Shown here: piece after piece, positions 55,059 to 64,000 of the stretch
Position numbering within the stretch: the first letter of the stretch is position 1
Layout: each line of letters begins with the position of its first letter
From: Deltaproteobacteria bacterium
GTDB taxonomy: Bacteria > Desulfobacterota > Desulfobaccia > Desulfobaccales > 0-14-0-80-60-11
Assembly: GCA_016208235.1 (NCBI GenBank)
Contig: JACQYN010000118.1
Location: 11,891-75,890, forward strand
Length of the DNA: 64,000 bases
Direction of reading: 5' to 3'
Notes under the pieces: model-generated
What the model was told of the DNA's origin: nothing
The model's database searches: none
What the model saw: only the letters and a program-made list of their open reading frames with translations
Position numbers and translations under genes: made by a program

Positions 55059-55970
55059 CTACTTCTTCTTGCTGCTGGAGGAACTGGAACTTGACGAGCT
55101 AGAGCTGCTGGAGCTGGAGGAACTGGAGCTGGACTTGCTGGGCGTGCTGGAGGAGCTGGAAGAACTGGGGGTGCTCCTTTGCACCTGCGGCGCCGGCGGC
55201 GGTGTCGGCCGGCTCAAGGTGGGCGGGGACGAGGCCGGACGGGACGGCGGCGGTGTAGGCCGCACCGCGGCAGGCGGCGGGGAGGCCGGGCGACTGGGCG
55301 TAGGTGTAGGTGTGGGCCGCACCGTGGCAGGCGGCGGCGTCGGGGTTGAACGGTAAGTCGAAGTCGACGGGGTCACCATGGAGCGGGGTGGAGTCGCGGG
55401 CGTTGGGCTCTTGGTGCCCGGCGGCGGTGGGGGCGCCGTAGTTTTCAGGCCCTTGGTGGGCTTCGGTTCCTGCTGTTTGATTTTCTGGATCTGCTCCTGC
55501 TGCCTCTTTACAGAATCAGCCTGCTCCTGCTGGGTTTTCTTTTGCCAATCAGAAAATTGCTGAGACTGGGGCTGGGTCTTGGCCGGTTGGGTCTTGGCCG
55601 GTTGAGCCGCGGGGGTCTGGGTTTTGGGCTTAGGAGTGGTGGGTGCCACCTGTTTGCCAGGCGGCACCGGAGGGACCTTTTGGGGTTTTATCGGCACCGG
55701 CTCATTCAAAGTGCTGCCCGGGCCGCCGTCAAAACGTTGCCCTTCATAAGTGCCGGAGCCACCGGGACCCTGGCCGGCAACGCCTTTTAACTGCTGCATG
55801 GCCTTGCCGTCTTGCTTGGGCTGCACCTGCTTTTGCTGCTGTTGTTGGGCTTTCTGTTTCTGTTGGGGGTCGGTGGGTTGACTGCTGCTTTGGGCCAGCG
55901 AGAGTGAATTGCTCATAAATAGCCCTAAAGCCACTGCGAGAGGCACCGCCAGGACTTTACGCCAATTCAT
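55059..55970 (-). CDS. secreted low-complexity Gln/Pro/Thr/Ser-rich protein with C-terminal poly-Ser tract
   Basis: Signal peptide MNWRKVLAVPLAVALGLFMSNSLSLAQS. Q-rich, then P/T-rich repeats (RPTPTPTPSRPASPPP..). Ends SSSSSSSSSSSSSSSSSSSSKKK. A terminator lies downstream. Confidence 0.6.
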   Translation of the reverse strand: MNWRKVLAVPLAVALGLFMSNSLSLAQSSSQPTDPQQKQKAQQQQQKQVQPKQDGKAMQQLKGVAGQGPGGSGTYEGQRFDGGPGSTLNEPVPIKPQKVPPVPPGKQVAPTTPKPKTQTPAAQPAKTQPAKTQPQSQQFSDWQKKTQQEQADSVKRQQEQIQKIKQQEPKPTKGLKTTAPPPPPGTKSPTPATPPRSMVTPSTSTYRSTPTPPPATVRPTPTPTPSRPASPPPAAVRPTPPPSRPASSPPTLSRPTPPPAPQVQRSTPSSSSSSSTPSKSSSSSSSSSSSSSSSSSSSSSKKK

Positions 55971-57939: not shown

Positions 57940-58539
57940 TCATACAAACAGGGTAATATCCGCGTCCGCGGCGAAGTCCAGAAACGCGCCGGCCCCGGCG
58001 AATTCCAGGCCGTCCAGCAGGTCTTCTTTTTTGATCCCCAACACGTCCAGAGACATCTGGCAGGCGATGAGGCGCACCCCGTTTTCCTTGGCCATGTCCA
58101 GCAGATCAGGGATGGTGGGCACCCCGCCCTTTTTCATCCAATCCTGCATCATCCAGCTAGCCATGCGGGTCATGCCCGGGAGCACCCCGATGATGTTGGG
58201 CATGGGCACGGGCATGGCCGGGTTGGCCAGGGGCGGCACCTTGAGGTGGGCGGATTTGCTCTTTTTGACGATCTCCAGGCCGTAGAAAGTGAAAAAGATG
58301 GCGGCCTCCATGTCCATGGCCGCGGCGGTGGTGGCCAGGATCAGGGGCGGATAAGCCATGTCCAGGGTGCCTTTGGAGGCGATGAGGGCCACGCGTTTGG
58401 GCCGGGCCGGGTCCAGGCCCAGGCGCTTGAGTTCCCCGGCCACCTGCAGGCGCACCTGTTCGGCAATCAGGGCCTGAAGTTCCGGAGATAAGGCCGGACC
58501 GCCGCCGGAAGCGGTTTGAGGTTCATCGTGATGACTCAT
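57940..58539 (-). CDS. DsrE2/DsrE3-like (DsrE/DsrF/DrsH-like family) sulfur carrier protein
   Basis: 199 aa. VALIASKGTLDMAYPPLILATTAAAMDMEAAIFFTFYG and conserved Cys region RLIACQMS, as in DsrE-like proteins that partner with TusA. Confidence 0.75.
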   Translation of the reverse strand: MSHHDEPQTASGGGPALSPELQALIAEQVRLQVAGELKRLGLDPARPKRVALIASKGTLDMAYPPLILATTAAAMDMEAAIFFTFYGLEIVKKSKSAHLKVPPLANPAMPVPMPNIIGVLPGMTRMASWMMQDWMKKGGVPTIPDLLDMAKENGVRLIACQMSLDVLGIKKEDLLDGLEFAGAGAFLDFAADADITLFV

Positions 58540-58551
58540 GTTTGCTCCTTG

Positions 58552-58725
58552 TTACCACCAGGAGATCACCTGGTCGTGGGTGGTGATTAAATCCAGCAAC
58601 CGGTCATAATCCACCGGCTCTTGATAAAGAAAAAATTCCGCGGCCTCCCGGTCCCGGGAGAGGATGGTTGCCAGTTCCCGGGTAACGGGATCGGGGGGGT
58701 GGCGAAAGACATGGAGAATTTTCAT
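58552..58725 (-). CDS. miniature DsrH/TusB-like protein
   Basis: ATG at 58725 after GAGG. The C-terminus VDYDRLLDLITTHDQVISWW resembles the TusB/DsrH C-terminus (IDY..F..L....(M/I).W). Only ~57 aa. Confidence 0.55.
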   Translation of the reverse strand: MKILHVFRHPPDPVTRELATILSRDREAAEFFLYQEPVDYDRLLDLITTHDQVISWW

Positions 58726-58733
58726 AAGCTGCC

Positions 58734-59018
58734 TCAAAAAGGAATAATAATATCCTGCCCGCGCAGAAGCTCCCCCATCTCCGCCAGGCTTAAGGAGGTG
58801 AAACCGTGCTTTTCCACGTTGGCCGGCTGATTGCTGTAGCGCCGGCCTTCCATTTCGTCCAAAAAACCCAGGTTGTCGGAAAAGGCCTCATCCGGGTGGA
58901 TCTCCTCATCCAGCACCAGGTAACTCACCTCATGGTCCTCCAGAAGGCATCCCAGGCTGGTGCGCAGGGCCTCGTACTGACGTTGGGGCTGGCGCACCAC
59001 TACTGCGACTTTTTTCAT
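58734..59018 (-). CDS. DsrF/TusC-like protein
   Basis: 94 aa. MKKVAVVV N-terminus and C-terminal QDIIIPF resemble TusC/DsrF (..YDVILRF). Confidence 0.6.
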   Translation of the reverse strand: MKKVAVVVRQPQRQYEALRTSLGCLLEDHEVSYLVLDEEIHPDEAFSDNLGFLDEMEGRRYSNQPANVEKHGFTSLSLAEMGELLRGQDIIIPF

Positions 59019-59030
59019 GGTGTTACTCCT

Positions 59031-59348
59031 CTACAGCACCAGGTAATAGGGACAGTCTTCCACCATGGCCGCGTGGCGGGCCTGGGTGGCAAAATCCTTG
59101 AACCCCATGCCCGGCACGTCCCCCTCCAAGCCTAAGGCCCGGAAGCTCACTTCACAAAGGGCCAACCGGGCCCGGCCCGCGAGTTGGGCAAAGCGGGGGT
59201 CCTGGGTGACCAGCACACCCTCGCCGCTGAGAAAGACCTCCACCTTCAGGCCCCTTTTTTCCGCGGCGGCCACCACCCCCAGGAGATGATCCAGGGAACC
59301 CCGGGTAGTCACCATGATGCCTAAGGGTCCGGTCATCTCGGGCCTCAT
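59031..59348 (-). CDS. DsrE/TusD-like protein
   Basis: Start ATG 59348 overlaps the tusA stop as ATGA. 105 aa. The LALCEVSFRALG Cys region resembles the DsrE/TusD active-site Cys context. Confidence 0.65.
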   Translation of the reverse strand: MRPEMTGPLGIMVTTRGSLDHLLGVVAAAEKRGLKVEVFLSGEGVLVTQDPRFAQLAGRARLALCEVSFRALGLEGDVPGMGFKDFATQARHAAMVEDCPYYLVL

Positions 59349-59581
59349 TTCTTCTGGAGAAAGAAGTGGAAGACGCTGCCTTCTTCCTCGTCTCCCAGGT
59401 AAAGGTTGCCGGTGCGGTTGGCCCAAGCGGGGAGATCGTTTTTGGAGCCAGGATCGGTGCCCACTATCTCCAAAATCTCGCCGCTGGCCAATTCCGCCAT
59501 GGCCTTCTTGGTCTTCAGCAGGGGCATGGGGCAGACGTCCCCCCGGCAATCCAGGGTGCGCTGCGGGGTGTATTTGGTCAT
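59345..59581 (-). CDS. tusA: TusA-family sulfurtransferase
   Basis: 78 aa. The LDCRGDVCPMPLLKTKKAM CPxP motif is diagnostic for TusA/SirA. Confidence 0.85.
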   Translation of the reverse strand: MTKYTPQRTLDCRGDVCPMPLLKTKKAMAELASGEILEIVGTDPGSKNDLPAWANRTGNLYLGDEEEGSVFHFFLQKK

Positions 59582-59666
59582 GTCTTGCTCCTTTAAAAAG
59601 TGTTTCTAAGGGAGGTAGCCGGGACGGGCGGGGAAACCCGCGCCCAGGTCCTTTTCCTCCTCCGGC

Positions 59667-59963
59667 TTATTCCTTGCAAAACAGCTCCCGGGTTAGGGAG
59701 ATGAGATCCATAAAGCGGGGGTTGTTCAGGCGGTAGAAGACCTGTTGGGCCGCCCGCCGGGAAGCCACAATCTCCTTGTCTTTCAAGAGATTGAGATGCT
59801 GGGAGATGCTGGATTGAGAAGCCTCCAGCTCTTTTTCCAGCTCCTGTACGGAATATTCCCTCTGGCTGAGGAGGTGAATGATCATCAGCCTTAAGGGGTG
59901 GGCCATGGTCCGTAAACACCGGGCCGCCTTTTCCAGACGTTCGGCTTTATATTTGCTTTTCAT
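59667..59963 (-). CDS. ArsR/SmtB-family transcriptional regulator
   Basis: LRTMAHPLRLMIIHLL..EYSVQELEKELEASQSSISQHLNLLKDKEIV winged-HTH pattern. Confidence 0.9.
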   Translation of the reverse strand: MKSKYKAERLEKAARCLRTMAHPLRLMIIHLLSQREYSVQELEKELEASQSSISQHLNLLKDKEIVASRRAAQQVFYRLNNPRFMDLISLTRELFCKE

Positions 59964-60173: not shown

Positions 60174-61412
60174 ATGATTTCTCCAAACCTTCAGGATAAC
60201 TGCACGCCGGCCCTAGACGGGGAAAATTTTTTCTTTGAGATGGGCCCCATCCGCCCCCCCAGCGAAGGCAGCGACCATTCCCTGCTGATCCGCACCACCA
60301 GGAACTGCAGTTGGAACCGGTGTGAGTTTTGCGGCACCTACCGGGGGGAAAAATTCAGTTACCGGCCGGTGGCGGAGATTAAGAAAGATATCGAGGTGGC
60401 CCGGACTCTGTATGAGGAATTGCAAGCCGTTGCCGCCCGGGGTGGGGTCCGGGAGATCAGTTCCCAGGCAGTGCGCTCTCTCTGGGCCGGCAACCCCCGG
60501 CGTTATGGGGAAAGTGCCGGGAATCTGACCCTTAAATGGCAAAATCTCCACAACGTCGCTAACTGGCTCCATGCCGGGGCCAAAACCGTGTTTCTCCAGG
60601 ACGCGGACGCCTTAATCATGCGCACCCCGGATTTACTGGAGGTTATCACCTATCTGCGCGCGGCCTTCCCCACGGTGGCGCGGGTCACCGCGTATGCCCG
60701 CTCCCAGAGTTGTTACCGCAAGTCATTGGAAGAATTAAGTGAATTACGCCAGGCGGGCCTGCTGCGGTTGCACGTGGGTCTGGAATCCGGCTGCGACGCG
60801 GTGCTCAAACGGATGAAAAAAGGAGTCTCCGCCCGGAAACAAGTGGAAGGCGGCCAAAAGGTGGTGGCCGCGGGCATCTCGCTGTGCGAATACCTCATGC
60901 CCGGCCTGGGGGGCAAGGATTTTTCCGAGAGGCATGCCCTGGACAGCGCCGCGGTGTTGACCGCCATCAACCCGGCTTTCATCCGCCTGCGCAGTTTGGC
61001 CCTGCGCCGCCATTCCCCCCTGTTGGCCCAAAGCAAGGAGGGACTCTTCACCGAACTCTCCGAAGACGGCGTAGTGGCGGAGATTGCCTTGCTGATCGCC
61101 AACTTGCATTGCCACTCGTATCTGGTCTCCGACCAGATGTCCAACCTGCTGTATGGCGTAGAAGGGCAACTGCCCCAGGATAAAGAGAAAATATTGCAGG
61201 TGATCGACGATTATTTACAAAAACCGGAGTCGGAGAGATTGGCTTTCCGGCTGCGGCAGCGCCGGCGGTCTTTCCTGGCGGTTTACGGCTCTCTTCCCGA
61301 ACCCCTGGAAGAAAAGGCCGAATTAGCCTGGGACGCCCTCCGCCGGGAATCCCCCGAAGCCCGGGAACGGGTGGACGCCGCTATTGCTGCGCTCAAGGAG
61401 GGTTTTGTTTGA
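60174..61412 (+). CDS. radical SAM-like protein with CX4CX2C cluster motif
   Basis: 412 aa. GPIRPPSEG..SLLIRTTRNCSWNRCEFCGTY, read directly from codons tgc agt tgg aac cgg tgt gag ttt tgc at ~60306-60332. TIM-barrel-like remainder. The start (60174 or 60240) is uncertain. Confidence 0.75.
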   Translation: MISPNLQDNCTPALDGENFFFEMGPIRPPSEGSDHSLLIRTTRNCSWNRCEFCGTYRGEKFSYRPVAEIKKDIEVARTLYEELQAVAARGGVREISSQAVRSLWAGNPRRYGESAGNLTLKWQNLHNVANWLHAGAKTVFLQDADALIMRTPDLLEVITYLRAAFPTVARVTAYARSQSCYRKSLEELSELRQAGLLRLHVGLESGCDAVLKRMKKGVSARKQVEGGQKVVAAGISLCEYLMPGLGGKDFSERHALDSAAVLTAINPAFIRLRSLALRRHSPLLAQSKEGLFTELSEDGVVAEIALLIANLHCHSYLVSDQMSNLLYGVEGQLPQDKEKILQVIDDYLQKPESERLAFRLRQRRRSFLAVYGSLPEPLEEKAELAWDALRRESPEARERVDAAIAALKEGFV

Positions 61413-61806: not shown

Positions 61807-61938
61807 ATGCCCAAAAAAGCGATCTGGCTGGTGATCATTTTTACCGCCCTCTTCATTCTGGGGATCAATACCGGAGACCTGGAGTACCTCATGAACCTGG
61901 GCAACACCATCTGCCTGTCCTGCATCGGAGTGGGTTGA
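61807..61938 (+). CDS. 43-aa membrane protein with C-terminal CXXC (not in ORF track)
   Basis: My translation: MPKKAIWLVIIFTALFILGINTGDLEYLMNLGNTICLSCIGVG. AGAGG at 61795-99 lies 7 nt upstream of the ATG. The stop TGA 61936-38 overlaps the ATG (61938) of the next gene. Confidence 0.5.
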   Translation: MPKKAIWLVIIFTALFILGINTGDLEYLMNLGNTICLSCIGVG

Positions 61939-62816
61939 TGGTCGCTCTCAGGTGGCTGATCCAGACCGTGGTGGCTCTGGGAACCAACGCTTATCTGCTC
62001 TTTCCCTGGGGCTCGGTGATCTACCAGGGCCCCTTGAAGGCGGTGTGCCATCCGGGCCTCAATTGCTATTCCTGCCCCGCGGCCCTGCTCTCCTGCCCGG
62101 TAGGCGCGGTGCAGAATTTTGTCGCCAGCCTGCGTTATATTACCCCGGGCAGCATCCCGCACCTGGGGGCCATGGTGGTGGGCTATCTGGGGTTCATCGG
62201 CACCCTGGTGGGCCGCCTGCCCTGTGGTTGGCTCTGTCCTTTCGGCTTCATCCAGGACCTGCTCAACAAAATTCCCTCGCCCAAGTTCAATCTCTGGGCC
62301 CCCTTGAGGTGGGTGAAATACGGGGTGCTGGTGGTGATGGTGATCCTCATGCCCTTCTTCCTGCTGGATCAATATGGTTTGGGGCAACCCTGGTTCTGTA
62401 AGCTGCTTTGCCCCGCGGGCACCATGTTGGGGGCGCTCCCCCTGGTGGCCCTCAAACCTGCACTGTGGACCACCCTGGGTTTTTACTTCTGGAACAAGAT
62501 CACCATTTTGGTGGCCATCGTCATTCTGGCCATTTTTATCAGCCGCCCCTTCTGCCGCATCCTTTGCCCCCTGGGAGCTTTTTACAGTTTATTTACCCGG
62601 ATGACCCTGGTGCAATTGGAGTTTATCGAGGGAAATTGCGTCGAATGCCGGGCCTGCGTGCGGGTCTGCCCCACCGGGGTAGCGCCCCATGAACAGAGAG
62701 ACAGCCGGGAATGCATCATGTGTCTGAAGTGCCTGGACGCCTGCCAGTTCCGGGCCCTGGGCTTCGGTCTGAGGCGGCCTTTGCCGCCGCCCAAGGAGTC
62801 CCATATTCACCCCTGA
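61938..62816 (+). CDS. NapH/MauN-like integral-membrane polyferredoxin (4Fe-4S binding protein)
   Basis: Repeated CxxCP motifs (CYSCP, CGWLCPFG, CKLLCPAG, CRILCPLG) plus two ferredoxin motifs CVECRACVRVCP and CIMCLKCLDAC. The track start 61935 is a TTG; the ATG is at 61938. Confidence 0.8.
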   Translation: MVALRWLIQTVVALGTNAYLLFPWGSVIYQGPLKAVCHPGLNCYSCPAALLSCPVGAVQNFVASLRYITPGSIPHLGAMVVGYLGFIGTLVGRLPCGWLCPFGFIQDLLNKIPSPKFNLWAPLRWVKYGVLVVMVILMPFFLLDQYGLGQPWFCKLLCPAGTMLGALPLVALKPALWTTLGFYFWNKITILVAIVILAIFISRPFCRILCPLGAFYSLFTRMTLVQLEFIEGNCVECRACVRVCPTGVAPHEQRDSRECIMCLKCLDACQFRALGFGLRRPLPPPKESHIHP

Positions 62817-62908
62817 ATAATAGGGCAAAAAATACTTGACACGGATTTTTGTTTAAGCCATTATATAAGCTACAGATTTAGCCGCTAACAAAAGGTTAGA
62901 ACAAGCCT

Positions 62909-63202
62909 ATGGCCCTCACCAAAGAAAAATTGATCAGCCGTCTGCAGACCCAGGTAGGTCTGAGCAAACAAGAATCCCGGGCAGTGGTGGAACGGGTCCT
63001 GGACCTCATGAAGGATTCCTTGGCCCGGAGTGAAGACCTGCTCATCAGCGGCTTCGGCAAGTTCTCGGTCAGGCAGAAAAACGCCCGCCGGGGCAGAAAC
63101 CCTCAAACCAAAGAAAATCTCATCCTGCGAGCCCGCAAGGTGGTGGTGTTCAAGACCTCCGGGGTGCTGCGCAACCGCATCAACGGCATCAGGTCCACCT
63201 AA
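62909..63202 (+). CDS. integration host factor / HU-family DNA-binding protein
   Basis: 97 aa. MALTKEKLISRL...GFGKFSVRQKNARRGRNPQTKENLILRARKVVVFKTS is the classical IHF/HU fold signature. Confidence 0.9.
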   Translation: MALTKEKLISRLQTQVGLSKQESRAVVERVLDLMKDSLARSEDLLISGFGKFSVRQKNARRGRNPQTKENLILRARKVVVFKTSGVLRNRINGIRST

Positions 63203-63333
63203 TTCGCCCCCTGGGTACCAGCGCCTGAAACAGGGAATACTCCCGATTCCTCCCCTGAAAATCAGGGGTGGATCTCGGGTTCAGGCCCATTTCGAGCCCC
63301 TTTGAGGCCCCCGACCATGGAAGGCAAAGGCAG

Positions 63334-64000
63334 ATGAGGACCGGCCCGCCGCCCTGGCTGTGCCGGCAGTGCAGCCGCCGCGCTTTTCTCCAGAGCAGCG
63401 CCTGCGCCCTGGCCCTCCTGGCCCTGCCACCTGCCCCCGCTCCGGCCCAGGAGATGCGCTCCGGCTTCATTCAACCCCACCCTGCCCTCTACTACCACGC
63501 CGTGGCCAAAGGCCTGGTGGAATGCCGGCTCTGCCCCCGCAAATGCGAGGTTAAGGATGGAGAACGGGGAGATTGCCTGGTCCGGGAAAACCGGGGCGGG
63601 AAATATTTCACCCTGGTTTACGGCAACCCCTGCGCGGTGCATCTGGACCCCATTGAGAAAAAGCCCTTTTTCCACGTCCTCCCGGGCACCCTGTCCTTCT
63701 CTATCGCCACTGCGGGATGCAACCTGCACTGCAGGTTCTGCCAGAACTGGGAGATCTCCCAGGCCCGGCCGGAAAAGACCTACAACTTCGTTCTCCCCCC
63801 GGAAAAGGTGGTGGCCGCGGCCCAGGAAGGAAAGTGCCCCTCCATCGCCTACACCTACGTGGAGCCCCTGATCTTTTATGAATACATGCTGGACACGGCC
63901 CGCCTGGGGAAGAAAGCGGGCCTCCTCAACACCTGCCACTCCGCGGGCTACATCAATACCGAGCCCCTACAAACCCTTACGGAAGTCCTGGACGCGGCCT
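63334..64000 (+). CDS. radical SAM enzyme (PflA-like / AmmeMemoRadiSam-type) with Tat signal peptide, 3'-partial
   Basis: Not in the ORF track because it runs off the window. My translation from ATG 63334: MRTGPPPWLCRQCSRRAFLQSSACALALLALPPAPAPAQE...ECRLCPRKCEVKDGERGDCLVREN...DPIEKKPFFHVLPG...GCNLHCRFCQNWEIS. Confidence 0.8.
   Translation, partial: MRTGPPPWLCRQCSRRAFLQSSACALALLALPPAPAPAQEMRSGFIQPHPALYYHAVAKGLVECRLCPRKCEVKDGERGDCLVRENRGGKYFTLVYGNPCAVHLDPIEKKPFFHVLPGTLSFSIATAGCNLHCRFCQNWEISQARPEKTYNFVLPPEKVVAAAQEGKCPSIAYTYVEPLIFYEYMLDTARLGKKAGLLNTCHSAGYINTEPLQTLTEVLDAA

Follow-up and report, generated by a model that had tools for sequence, protein, structure and literature searches.

A conserved Tat-type leader on a TIGR04337-type radical SAM enzyme, and a candidate membrane electron conduit for it

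Can radical SAM chemistry take place outside the cytoplasm? To our knowledge, characterised radical SAM enzymes all act in the cytoplasm or in an organelle matrix, where SAM and flavodoxin or ferredoxin are at hand; the periplasm is not known to have a SAM pool, a SAM exporter or a low-potential reductant. The question is raised by a gene at the end of the 64,000-nucleotide stretch of DNA analysed here (the window), for which a preliminary description proposed a PflA-like/AmmeMemoRadiSam radical SAM enzyme with an apparent twin-arginine (Tat) signal peptide, beside a membrane polyferredoxin that could supply its electrons. No paper describing an exported radical SAM enzyme was found in our literature search, whose reach excluded most subscription journals.

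The radical SAM gene at the window end

The frame starting at ATG 63334-63336 is open to base 64000 without a stop, and its translation of 222 amino acids reads MRTGPPPWLCRQCSRRAFLQSSACALALLALPPAPAPAQE MRSGFIQ... CRLCPRKC ... DPIEKKPFFH ... GCNLHCRFCQNWEIS. The following features were located in or just ahead of it:

63319..63324, + strand: Shine-Dalgarno-like hexamer GGAAGG, 9 nt upstream of the ATG (direct reading)
63334..64000, + strand: radical SAM gene of the TIGR04337 type, 5' part (222 codons)
63334..63447, + strand: predicted Tat signal peptide, residues 1-38 (TIGR01409, 17.5 bits; conservation in homologues)
63376..63381, + strand: twin-arginine codons, R15 and R16 (invariant columns in alignments A1, A2 and A3)
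63523..63576, + strand: N-terminal Cys motif C64-x2-C67-x3-C71-x9-C81, putative site of an auxiliary metal or cluster
63718..63741, + strand: radical SAM cluster motif C129-x3-C133-x2-C136, CNLHCRFC (Pfam Radical_SAM, 9.3e-11; cysteines invariant)

The profile TIGR04337 (AmmeMemoRadiSam radical SAM enzyme) matches residues 53-222 over profile positions 3-172 with an E value of 1.1e-53. The fragment scores 182.3 bits against a cut-off of 220, the gene being cut by the window end after 222 residues, while full-length orthologues (385-389 aa) score well above it: 370 bits for P0001, which has 385 aa and is 90% identical to the window protein, and 372-392 bits for P0024, P0106 and P0115. The window ORF is the 5' half of a gene for a PflA-like radical SAM enzyme of the TIGR04337 type, in agreement with the family first proposed for it. 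Since the profile match starts at residue 53, residues 1-52 form an extension beyond the family profile.

The nearest solved fold of the modelled protein is that of PFL-AE (TM-score 0.80 on target, E 2e-13), which is also the one match of a sequence search against the PDB (E 1e-7); that search returned no structure of the TIGR04337 family. With PflA (PDB 3c8f/8fo0) and the glycyl-radical activases the window protein has the partial TIM barrel and the cluster motif in common. However, it is only 17% identical to PflA, carries additional N-terminal Cys-rich and C-terminal zinc-ribbon-like modules, and bears a signal peptide that the cytoplasmic PflA lacks. On the glycyl-radical activase profiles P0001 reaches 59.5 bits (TIGR02493, cut-off 231.75) and 57 bits (TIGR02494, cut-off 174.35), and no gene for a glycyl-radical enzyme is present among the called neighbours of the radical SAM gene. 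Homologues are named 'pyruvate formate lyase activating enzyme' by JGI automatic annotation.

Canonical TIGR04337 proteins are cytoplasmic and either about 335-350 aa long or part of an rSAM-AMMECR1-Memo fusion of about 900-1100 aa. Both they and the window type contain the N-terminal C-x2-C-x3-C...C motif (in alignment A1 its C64 and C81 never vary and C67 hardly does), DPIEKKP, CX3CX2C, TYxEP and a C-terminal CxxC...CxxC. The window form differs by its 38-residue Tat signal, absent from canonical members, and by its surroundings, which include a NapH-like polyferredoxin and a CxxC microprotein but, in the window as around close relatives, neither Memo nor AMMECR1. The only discussion of the function of the TIGR04337 family that we found is a 2007 study predicting a role of AMMECR1 in RNA base modification (PMC2034487).

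The leader and its conservation

The predicted leader consists of an n-region (residues 1-14), the motif SRRAFLQ (14-20), an h-region (about 21-33) and a c-region with APA, with predicted cleavage before Q39. Its segment S14-R-R-A-F-L-Q20 agrees with the Tat consensus S/T-R-R-x-F-L-K near the N-terminus. On the TIGR01409 TAT_signal_seq profile (cut-off 16.7) the isolated N-terminus scores 17.5 bits and the whole P0001 protein 15.2 bits, just under the cut-off; on Pfam TAT_signal (PF10518) the N-terminus scores 12.9 bits, below the cut-off of 22.7. The h-region ACALALLALPPA, which is broken up by prolines, has a mean hydropathy of 1.96 in its best 12-residue window and is followed by A36-P-A38/Q39. 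Sampled signals of Memo-AMMECR1 partners lie above this value, at 2.4-3.4; Tat signal cores are usually less hydrophobic than Sec cores. The structural model sets the leader apart from the predicted fold, with residues 15-30 as an isolated helix. When all ORFs of at least 100 aa in the six frames of the window were passed through a Tat regular expression plus a hydrophobic-core test, a single one of 1443 start/ORF combinations passed, namely ORF 63334, which together with the invariance of the RR pair rules out a chance likeness to a Tat signal.

Among close homologues with a complete N-terminus, RRxF is kept in 114 of 115. In alignment A1 (33 sequences, 37-71% identity) R15 and R16 are invariant, like the cysteines of CX3CX2C, while the remaining leader drifts. 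The apparent signal of the preliminary description is thereby borne out: as a conserved feature the Tat signal is real, and export itself is predicted. Could the leader nonetheless be an artefact, the true start being the in-frame Met at residue 41 (63454) and the upstream likeness to a Tat signal a coincidence? We give this almost no credence. The position of Met41 is L, V, I or M in homologues, called homologues begin at the same upstream position as ATG 63334, a Shine-Dalgarno-like hexamer precedes that ATG, and the upstream 40 codons are conserved at the protein level in more than 100 homologues, in addition to the single pass in the six-frame control. A start at Met41 is refuted by the conservation. 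Of the other objections raised at the outset, that homologues might lack the extension falls with the retention of the leader in close homologues, and that signal predictors might reject the leader is answered by the curated Tat profile TIGR01409, which accepts the isolated N-terminus.

A small-x-small site of the peptidase type follows the h-region in 102 of the 114 close homologues, with a strict AxA in 57/114; a sub-clade of the Desulfobacca acetoxidans type (LFPFFPQE; 12/114) lacks the site. This sub-clade and the modest share of strict AxA sites, along with the many relatives whose N-terminus is a plain TM anchor or which are joined to membrane modules, lend something to the idea that the Tat leader stays uncleaved as an N-terminal signal anchor, in the manner of Rieske proteins, and would hold the enzyme on the outer membrane face beside the NapH-like module. 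For the window protein such an anchor seems improbable, given its good A-P-A/Q-E site, the preservation of small-x-small in most homologues, and an h-region of limited hydropathy interrupted by prolines.

Beyond the close homologues, a canonical Tat leader is present in at least 31 of 150 representatives (38-55% identity), others showing a KR/RK variant or a lipobox (the latter in P0149 and P0162); 67 of the 150 have no N-terminal extension and 25 of the 150 are signal-less fusions. Loci were collected by a genome scan with the nine-sequence alignment A2. Among the 80 closest genomic loci, from at least 10 phyla, about 51 encode Tat-type enzymes and about 25 encode enzymes with Sec-like signals or anchors. 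These roughly 25 relatives with Sec-like, non-RR signals are hard to square with an Fe-S enzyme, which hints that the model is incomplete somewhere.

Membrane modules and signal-bearing partners

Upstream of the radical SAM gene the window contains three further genes of interest:

61807..61938, + strand: 43-aa membrane microprotein with C-terminal CLSCIGVG; its stop overlaps the start of the NapH-like gene
61938..62816, + strand: NapH/NosR-like membrane polyferredoxin with Fer4_5, three CX3CP and a C-terminal 2x[4Fe-4S] ferredoxin domain; proposed electron conduit
62909..63202, + strand: IHF/HU-family gene (NF001401, 7e-30), between the NapH-like and radical SAM genes

The polyferredoxin matches Pfam Fer4_5 (4.9e-17; 62.1 bits, cut-off 22), and TIGR02163 (70.9 bits against 213, a partial match) and NF007013 (65 against 234) below their cut-offs; it is NapH-like and not an orthologue of NapH. 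It has TM helices, two ferredoxin-type CxxCxxCxxxC motifs and an extra N-terminal 4-Cys loop. Its gene is syntenic in L001, L002, L004, L007 and L009-L014 (rearranged in L014), lies near the radical SAM gene in the distant locus L027, and is absent as a neighbour in L005. The microprotein, conserved in L001, L002, L004, L010-L012, L014 and again L027, resembles the CD1871A CXXC family weakly (NF040920, 16.3 bits against a cut-off of 32) and is a probable subunit of the membrane module. As a pair, the NapH-like and microprotein genes are linked to the radical SAM gene in all loci of the window clade, in the rearranged L014 and in L027. The IHF/HU gene keeps its position in L001, L002 and L004 and is not counted as a functional part. 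A promoter-like site (62836-62864) precedes it, and a hairpin also lies between the NapH-like and radical SAM genes, where a terminator and promoter scan found no intrinsic terminator on the + strand. With a hairpin and a gene that has its own promoter-like site between the two, their linkage could be partly inherited synteny.

More distant relatives speak to the same connection by fusion. The architectures are TM+FMN_bind+Fer4_5+rSAM (P0124, P0133), DsbD_2+FMN_bind+Fer4_5+rSAM (P0140), DsbD_2+rSAM (P0128, P0132) and TM+FMN_bind+rSAM (P0142, P0147). In L089 and L090 the genes for DsbD_2+Fer4_5 and FMN_bind-rSAM overlap, and DsbD_2 genes adjoin the radical SAM gene in 9 loci. By Kyte-Doolittle windows and the positive-inside rule, a crude method used for all topologies here, both CX3CP loops of the fusions face inside, and an extra seventh helix would place the rSAM domain on the outer, FMN_bind side. 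The suggestion that the adjacent polyferredoxin supplies electrons thus gains support from the module fusions and from NapH-like linkage in rearranged and distant loci, and is put forward as a proposal.

Known systems offer close parallels. In NapGH, NosR-NosZ and PceC-PceA a membrane polyferredoxin with Fer4_5/CX3CP is likewise encoded beside a Tat-signal Fe-S protein, and the NosR-like FMN_bind+Fer4_5 architecture occurs fused to the radical SAM family of the window. However, the client here is a radical SAM enzyme and not a respiratory reductase. Compared with NapH/NosR systems, the rSAM fusions have the extra seventh helix and no cytoplasmic C-terminal ferredoxin domain, whereas the window NapH-like protein has no FMN_bind but has the extra N-terminal 4-Cys loop and the 43-aa CxxC partner. 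The same modules (PF12801 Fer4_5, FMN_bind, DsbD-type) make up the flavinylation-associated systems of Meheust et al. 2021, a paper that assigns NapH-like and DsbD-like modules to extracytosolic electron transfer and gives the reactions or clients of most NapH-like systems as unknown (PMC8238504). The main text of that paper contains no occurrence of radical SAM, Memo or AMMECR1 clients, and its DsbD class is PF02683, whereas the proteins near or fused to rSAM here are PF13386 DsbD_2.

HMMs built on the fused relatives were run over the 64-kb window and, in L001-L006, up to 8-10 kb from the gene, and gave no hit for Memo, AMMECR1, FMN_bind or DsbD_2; Memo and AMMECR1 genes were likewise not found in L007-L014, and an HMM search found no SpeE-like gene in the window or L001-L006. 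A search started from a Memo-AMMECR1 protein, aimed at partners elsewhere in Desulfobaccales genomes, gave close relatives of the query alone, without informative taxon names. Memo/AMMECR1 genes stand beside more distant Tat-bearing relatives, e.g. in L020, L021, L025, L053-L055, L060 and L073. The co-occurrence that the preliminary description proposed to check holds for NapH-like genes in the close loci and for AMMECR1/Memo in distant relatives, but not for AMMECR1/Memo in the clade of the window. Every adjacent Memo-AMMECR1 partner in the genomic loci has a signal-like N-terminus, as do 93 of 95 Memo-AMMECR1 homologues. In about 35 of the 80 loci the enzyme adjoins a polytopic membrane protein with a spermidine-synthase-like (SAM/dcSAM-fold) domain predicted to face outward, and this protein may be part of the answer to the need for periplasmic SAM.

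The partners and fusions also bear on whether the leader exports anything. A non-exporting remnant, as in NarG, might bind a chaperone or tether the enzyme to the cytoplasmic face, which would solve the SAM and reductant problems together. Vestigial Tat motifs do occur on cytoplasmic-facing Fe-S or molybdenum enzymes, NarG-type enzymes share with the window protein an N-terminal leader with RR and an Fe-S chemistry better suited to the cytoplasm, and the Pfam TAT_signal score is under threshold. Remnants degenerate, however, whereas the motif here is canonical, with an invariant RR pair, F, an h-region and a peptidase-type site. Partners carry genuine signal peptides of the ordinary Sec or lipoprotein kind, some relatives of the enzyme itself have lipoboxes, and the fusions put the rSAM domain on the FMN_bind side. 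We regard retention in the cytoplasm as distinctly improbable.

A proposed extracytoplasmic radical SAM system

The reading that we favour, at a little better than even confidence and from sequence evidence, is that of a radical SAM enzyme exported by Tat to the periplasm and driven there by electrons from a membrane Fe-S conduit. The [4Fe-4S] cluster(s) would be inserted and the enzyme folded in the cytoplasm before Tat export, and the enzyme would then act on the periplasmic side. Reducing electrons would reach the radical SAM cluster through a dedicated transmembrane conduit, which in the window lineage would be the NapH-like polyferredoxin (61938-62816) with the 43-aa CxxC microprotein (61807-61938), and in other lineages NosR-like FMN_bind+Fer4_5 modules or DsbD_2 proteins, adjacent or fused. 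Most other lineages would pair the exported enzyme with a Sec-exported Memo-AMMECR1 fusion protein and often also with the polytopic membrane protein with the spermidine-synthase-like domain. SAM might travel bound to the folded enzyme, enough for the one turnover that an activase-like enzyme would be expected to make, or it might be delivered by some exporter.

An exported enzyme need not sustain radical SAM chemistry outside. The SAM-dependent step might take place in the cytoplasm, on the enzyme itself or on a bound partner that then leaves with it as a Tat hitch-hiker, or the enzyme might act once with one bound SAM, and serve afterwards as a redox or structural subunit at most. Periplasmic SAM would then no longer be needed, one turnover per target would be enough for a family nearest to the glycyl-radical activases, and Tat is known to export folded, cofactor-loaded proteins and complexes (PMC10924467). 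We still consider this rather unlikely. The Memo-AMMECR1 partners carry Sec-type signals and so would fold only after export, too late to be modified or carried in the cytoplasm; the transmembrane electron modules are fused to an rSAM domain predicted to lie outside, which implies repeated reduction there; and the SAM-binding and cluster motifs are still strongly conserved.

Returning to the periplasmic enzyme, a broader proposal, in which our confidence falls somewhat short of even, is that it belongs to a dedicated extracytoplasmic radical SAM branch in at least 10 phyla, made up of a Tat- or Sec-like-exported enzyme and a Sec-exported Memo-AMMECR1 protein and reduced via NapH/NosR-like Fe-S/FMN or DsbD_2 modules. 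Such a branch would require that SAM or a SAM-loaded enzyme reach the periplasm, and the window gene would be its NapH-linked, Memo-less sub-type.

Conserved radical SAM enzymes with export signals in many phyla would change the picture of a family confined to the cytoplasm or matrix, and in this the signal-bearing partners and the purpose-built electron modules of the membrane agree with the export signals. Should export be disproved, the invariant RR leader itself would need another explanation. If the proposal is true, it would open a new compartment for radical chemistry, require delivery of SAM across the membrane, and supply the many orphan systems of extracytosolic electron transfer of the NapH-like and DsbD_2 kinds with a first identified client. 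The function of the Memo/AMMECR1/radical SAM triad, whose conservation extends to humans, would become easier to approach; in bacteria with the exported enzyme the target must then be a component of the cell envelope.

Tat-rSAM and its N-terminal leader

The truncated radical SAM gene at the window end is as follows.
63334-64000 (+): Tat-rSAM ORF, ATG start, stop-free to the window end, 222 codons

The translation quoted in the preliminary description is identical to the frame opened by this ATG, which has a Shine-Dalgarno-like hexamer (GGAAGG) 9 nt upstream. Residues 53-222 align with positions 3-172 of TIGR04337, the NCBIfam model of the AmmeMemoRadiSam system radical SAM enzyme (E 1.1e-53), and Pfam Radical_SAM covers residues 125-213; since the profile match begins at residue 53, the first ~52 residues form an extension beyond it. 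The fragment scores 182 bits against a cut-off of 220, solely because half of the gene falls outside the window: P0001, a full-length orthologue (385 aa, 90% identical), scores 370 bits, and three remoter orthologues 372-392 bits. The AmmeMemoRadiSam-type call made earlier is thus borne out as TIGR04337 membership by sequence. By context the locus departs from the system, with no Memo or AMMECR1 gene nearby. The enzyme would work like a glycyl-radical activase without being one (TIGR02493, 59.5 versus 231.75). AlphaFold2 models P0001 with confidence (pLDDT 86.8, pTM 0.84), showing residues 15-30 as an isolated helix outside a fold that begins near residue 41. Among solved structures the nearest is that of the PFL-activating enzyme from E. 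coli, at 17% identity and a target TM-score of 0.80; a PDB sequence search found no structure of the TIGR04337-type family itself.

The leader comprises a 14-residue n-region, S-R-R-A-F-L-Q, an h-region whose best 12-residue stretch (ACALALLALPPA) has a mean hydropathy of 1.96, and an A-P-A/Q-E end. The isolated N-terminus passes the curated Tat model TIGR01409 (17.5 bits versus 16.7) and falls below the cut-off of Pfam TAT_signal (12.9 versus 22.7). RRxF is present in 114 of 115 close homologues with a complete N-terminus (63-90% identity). Across 33 leader-bearing sequences (37-71% identity), R15 and R16 are invariant, as are the three radical SAM cysteines, and the rest of the leader drifts freely. 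The Tat signal first proposed by eye therefore stands: one curated model accepts it, close homologues keep the extension, and the internal Met41 is ruled out as the start because homologues carry L, V, I or M there. A control over all six frames of the window, with 1443 start/ORF combinations of 100 aa or more, picked out Tat-rSAM alone as having both a Tat motif and a hydrophobic core; a mis-called start or a chance resemblance to a Tat signal is scarcely credible.

Of 114 homologues, 102 have a small-x-small peptidase site behind the h-region, and for the window protein cleavage after A38 is probable. A sub-clade of Desulfobacca acetoxidans type (LFPFFPQE) lacks the site, and its enzymes may stay membrane-anchored. 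That the leader is an uncleaved signal anchor is unlikely.

Leaders in the wider family

The best 150 relatives (38-55% identity) were taken from an exhaustive HMMER search over 1.84 billion cluster representatives. At least 31 of these have a canonical RRxF[LI] leader (length 373-396 aa); others show RK/KR variants, single N-terminal hydrophobic anchors, long N-terminal membrane fusions or lipoboxes (P0149, LSGC; P0162, LTGC). The extension is missing from 67 of the 150 (about 335-350 aa), and 25 of the 150 are signal-less rSAM-AMMECR1-Memo fusions. Scanning a single genome for each species gave 589 relatives, the best 80 loci of which were examined; these belong to Thermodesulfobacteriota, Omnitrophota, Aminicenantes, Zixibacteria, Latescibacterota, Planctomycetota, Poribacteria, WOR-3, Elusimicrobia and others. 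In our own ORF and N-terminus analysis, with some borderline cases judged by eye, ~51 of the 80 carry Tat-type (RR or KR) leaders and ~25 an anchor or a Sec-like signal, which leaves at most four with no signal or an ambiguous N-terminus. Judged from sequence, the export-type leader is a family-wide trait, not a local oddity.

Sec-like, strongly hydrophobic, RR-less signals (e.g. MKKSLLLLILLLSVLFPAIGADQ) were noted in L027-L029, L031, L033-L036, L042, L044, L046, L052, L061-L063, L067, L070, L075, L077 and L080, mostly Omnitrophota. We know of no Fe-S enzymes that are Sec substrates; the non-RR hydrophobic signals of ~25 relatives are unexpected for an Fe-S enzyme and fit the export model poorly.

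A Memo-AMMECR1 fusion gene (~500 aa) adjoins the rSAM gene in ~27 of the best 80 loci, each time with a signal-like N-terminus, and a separate search found such an N-terminus, in some cases with a lipobox, in 93 of 95 full-length Memo-AMMECR1 homologues. With signals on both proteins, the three-domain system (rSAM, Memo, AMMECR1) is predicted to be wholly extracytoplasmic in these bacteria. Memo, AMMECR1, FMN_bind, DsbD_2 and SpeE-like genes were not found in the window or near its close relatives.

Beside KR/RR-type TIGR04337 relatives, a second uncharacterised radical SAM family (~350 aa; motifs CQLCPRxCGVNR and FFSNCNLRCxFCQNW) is encoded; it too has a canonical Tat leader (TRRDFIK with an h-region), and it scores only 19 bits on TIGR04337.
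L015 3460-4524 (-), L017 11267-12358 (-), L022 11122-12282 (-), L032 3485-4558 (+), L050 6090-7172 (+): members of this family

The candidate electron conduit

Upstream of Tat-rSAM lie the following features.
61807-61938 (+): 43-aa ORF, MPKKAIWLVIIFTALFILGINTGDLEYLMNLGNTICLSCIGVG, one N-terminal TM helix, C-terminal CxxC
61938-62816 (+): NapH-like gene, Pfam Fer4_5, three CX3CP motifs, C-terminal 2x[4Fe-4S] domain
62836-62864 (+): strong sigma-70-like promoter match, TTGACA-17-CATTAT, 5' of the IHF/HU gene
63252-63268 (+): perfect 7-bp hairpin, CCCCTGA-AAA-TCAGGGG, no T-tract, IHF-rSAM intergenic

By sequence, 61938-62816 is NapH/NosR-like, yet no NapH orthologue. The stop of the 43-aa ORF overlaps its start, and the two are kept together in L001, L002, L004, L010-L012 and L014; the ORF matches the CD1871A CXXC family (NF040920) weakly, below threshold, and has a counterpart with CLSCIGIG in the distant locus L027. 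The order ArsR(-), 43-aa ORF, NapH-like, IHF/HU, Tat-rSAM, YchF is conserved in L001, L002 and L004; L007 and L009-L013 have a NapH-like gene just upstream of the rSAM gene, and L005 has no such neighbour. This synteny could by itself reflect inheritance, and the two genes are separated by the hairpin and by the IHF gene, which has a promoter-like site of its own. The NapH-like gene is also within 3 kb of the rSAM gene in the rearranged L014 and in L027, whose rSAM is 56% identical with a Sec-like signal.

Other features of the window and its relatives were recorded.
60174-61412 (+): second radical SAM gene (412 aa), no family assignment, only weak matches to B12-binding or methyltransferase-type rSAM models
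57940-59963 (-): cluster divergent from the NapH-like unit, with small ORFs and genes for DsrE/DsrE_2-like proteins, a TusA-like protein and an ArsR/HTH_5 regulator
55059-55970 (-): 303-aa protein, Sec-like signal (MNWRKVLAVPLAVALGLFMSNSLSLAQS), low-complexity Q/P/T/K-rich part, ~30-residue poly-serine tail, KKK end
L001 11219-12226 (+): 335-aa ORF without Pfam match, between the rSAM gene and ychF

The 60174-61412 gene has a counterpart in L001 (471 aa) and none in L002 or L004, and so probably lies outside the NapH-like/Tat-rSAM unit. The 335-aa ORF is likewise missing from L002 and L004 and therefore looks like a lineage-specific insertion. For 57940-59963 the window lists ORFs alone, the domain labels being those of syntenic L001 genes; L002 keeps a DsrE-like gene and the regulator, L004 the regulator alone.

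Several relatives are fused to electron-transfer modules: TM+FMN_bind+Fer4_5+rSAM (P0124, P0133), DsbD_2+FMN_bind+Fer4_5+rSAM (P0140), DsbD_2+rSAM (P0128, P0132) and TM+FMN_bind+rSAM (P0142, P0147). An FMN_bind-rSAM gene is overlapped by a DsbD_2+Fer4_5 gene in L089 and L090, and DsbD_2 genes adjoin in 9 of the best 80 loci. From hydropathy and the positive-inside rule, the NosR-like fusions have a single consistent predicted topology, with the N-terminus inside, FMN_bind outside, both K/R-rich CX3CP loops inside, and a seventh helix, which NosR lacks, bringing the chain back outside ahead of the rSAM domain. In P0142 no helix intervenes between FMN_bind and the rSAM domain. NosR, PceC, RnfG and NqrC carry FMN_bind as their flavinylated extracytosolic module; periplasmic covalent FMN beside a radical SAM domain looks, we infer, like a stand-in for flavodoxin. 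As in NapH-NapG, NosR-NosZ and PceC-PceA, a Tat-exported metalloenzyme would be served by a NapH-family membrane protein, but here the client is a radical SAM enzyme. Both NapH-like and DsbD-like systems have been described as extracytosolic electron-transfer devices, most of the NapH-like ones with unknown clients (PMC8238504). The rearranged and distant linkage, the fusions and the adjoining DsbD_2 genes support a functional link to the membrane polyferredoxin, suggested earlier as a possible electron source. A remnant leader on an enzyme that stays cytoplasmic is at odds with the invariance of the RR pair, the partners' signals and this topology, and is a shade more doubtful than the signal anchor.

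Proposed export and SAM supply

All claims past the sequence features are predictions. In the reading that we prefer, each step of which we infer, Fe-S cluster(s) would be loaded in the cytoplasm, the Tat pathway would export the folded enzyme, and the NapH-like module with the 43-aa CxxC microprotein would reduce it at the outer face. The folded enzyme might take one SAM out and act once, a behaviour in keeping with an activase-like enzyme; that it is exported with its chemistry preceding export or occurring once only has a modest chance of being right. For export followed by outer-face reduction, an unknown exporter could also supply SAM. In ~35 of the best 80 loci, across many phyla and not in the window or its clade, the direct neighbour of the signal-bearing rSAM gene encodes a polytopic membrane protein of 710-780 aa. 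It has 6-7 TM helices, a central ~310-aa spermidine-synthase-like domain with a SAM/dcSAM-binding fold (Pfam PF01564, E 1e-28 to 1e-30) and 5-7 further TM helices, and loop charges on either side of this SpeE-like domain, a crude method, predict that it lies outside. It is a possibly relevant lead on SAM supply, from other lineages.
Among L021-L086, e.g. L039 10878-13226 and L084 11135-13273; further L089 6336-8501 and L091 6370-8631: polytopic SpeE-like protein

In a search covering few subscription journals we found no paper on a radical SAM enzyme that is exported, periplasmic or dependent on Tat; the sole functional discussion found of AMMECR1-associated radical SAM enzymes dates from 2007 and predicts that AMMECR1 acts in RNA modification (PMC2034487). 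These leaders may already be picked up by automatic annotation pipelines. Export, if confirmed, would surprise specialists.
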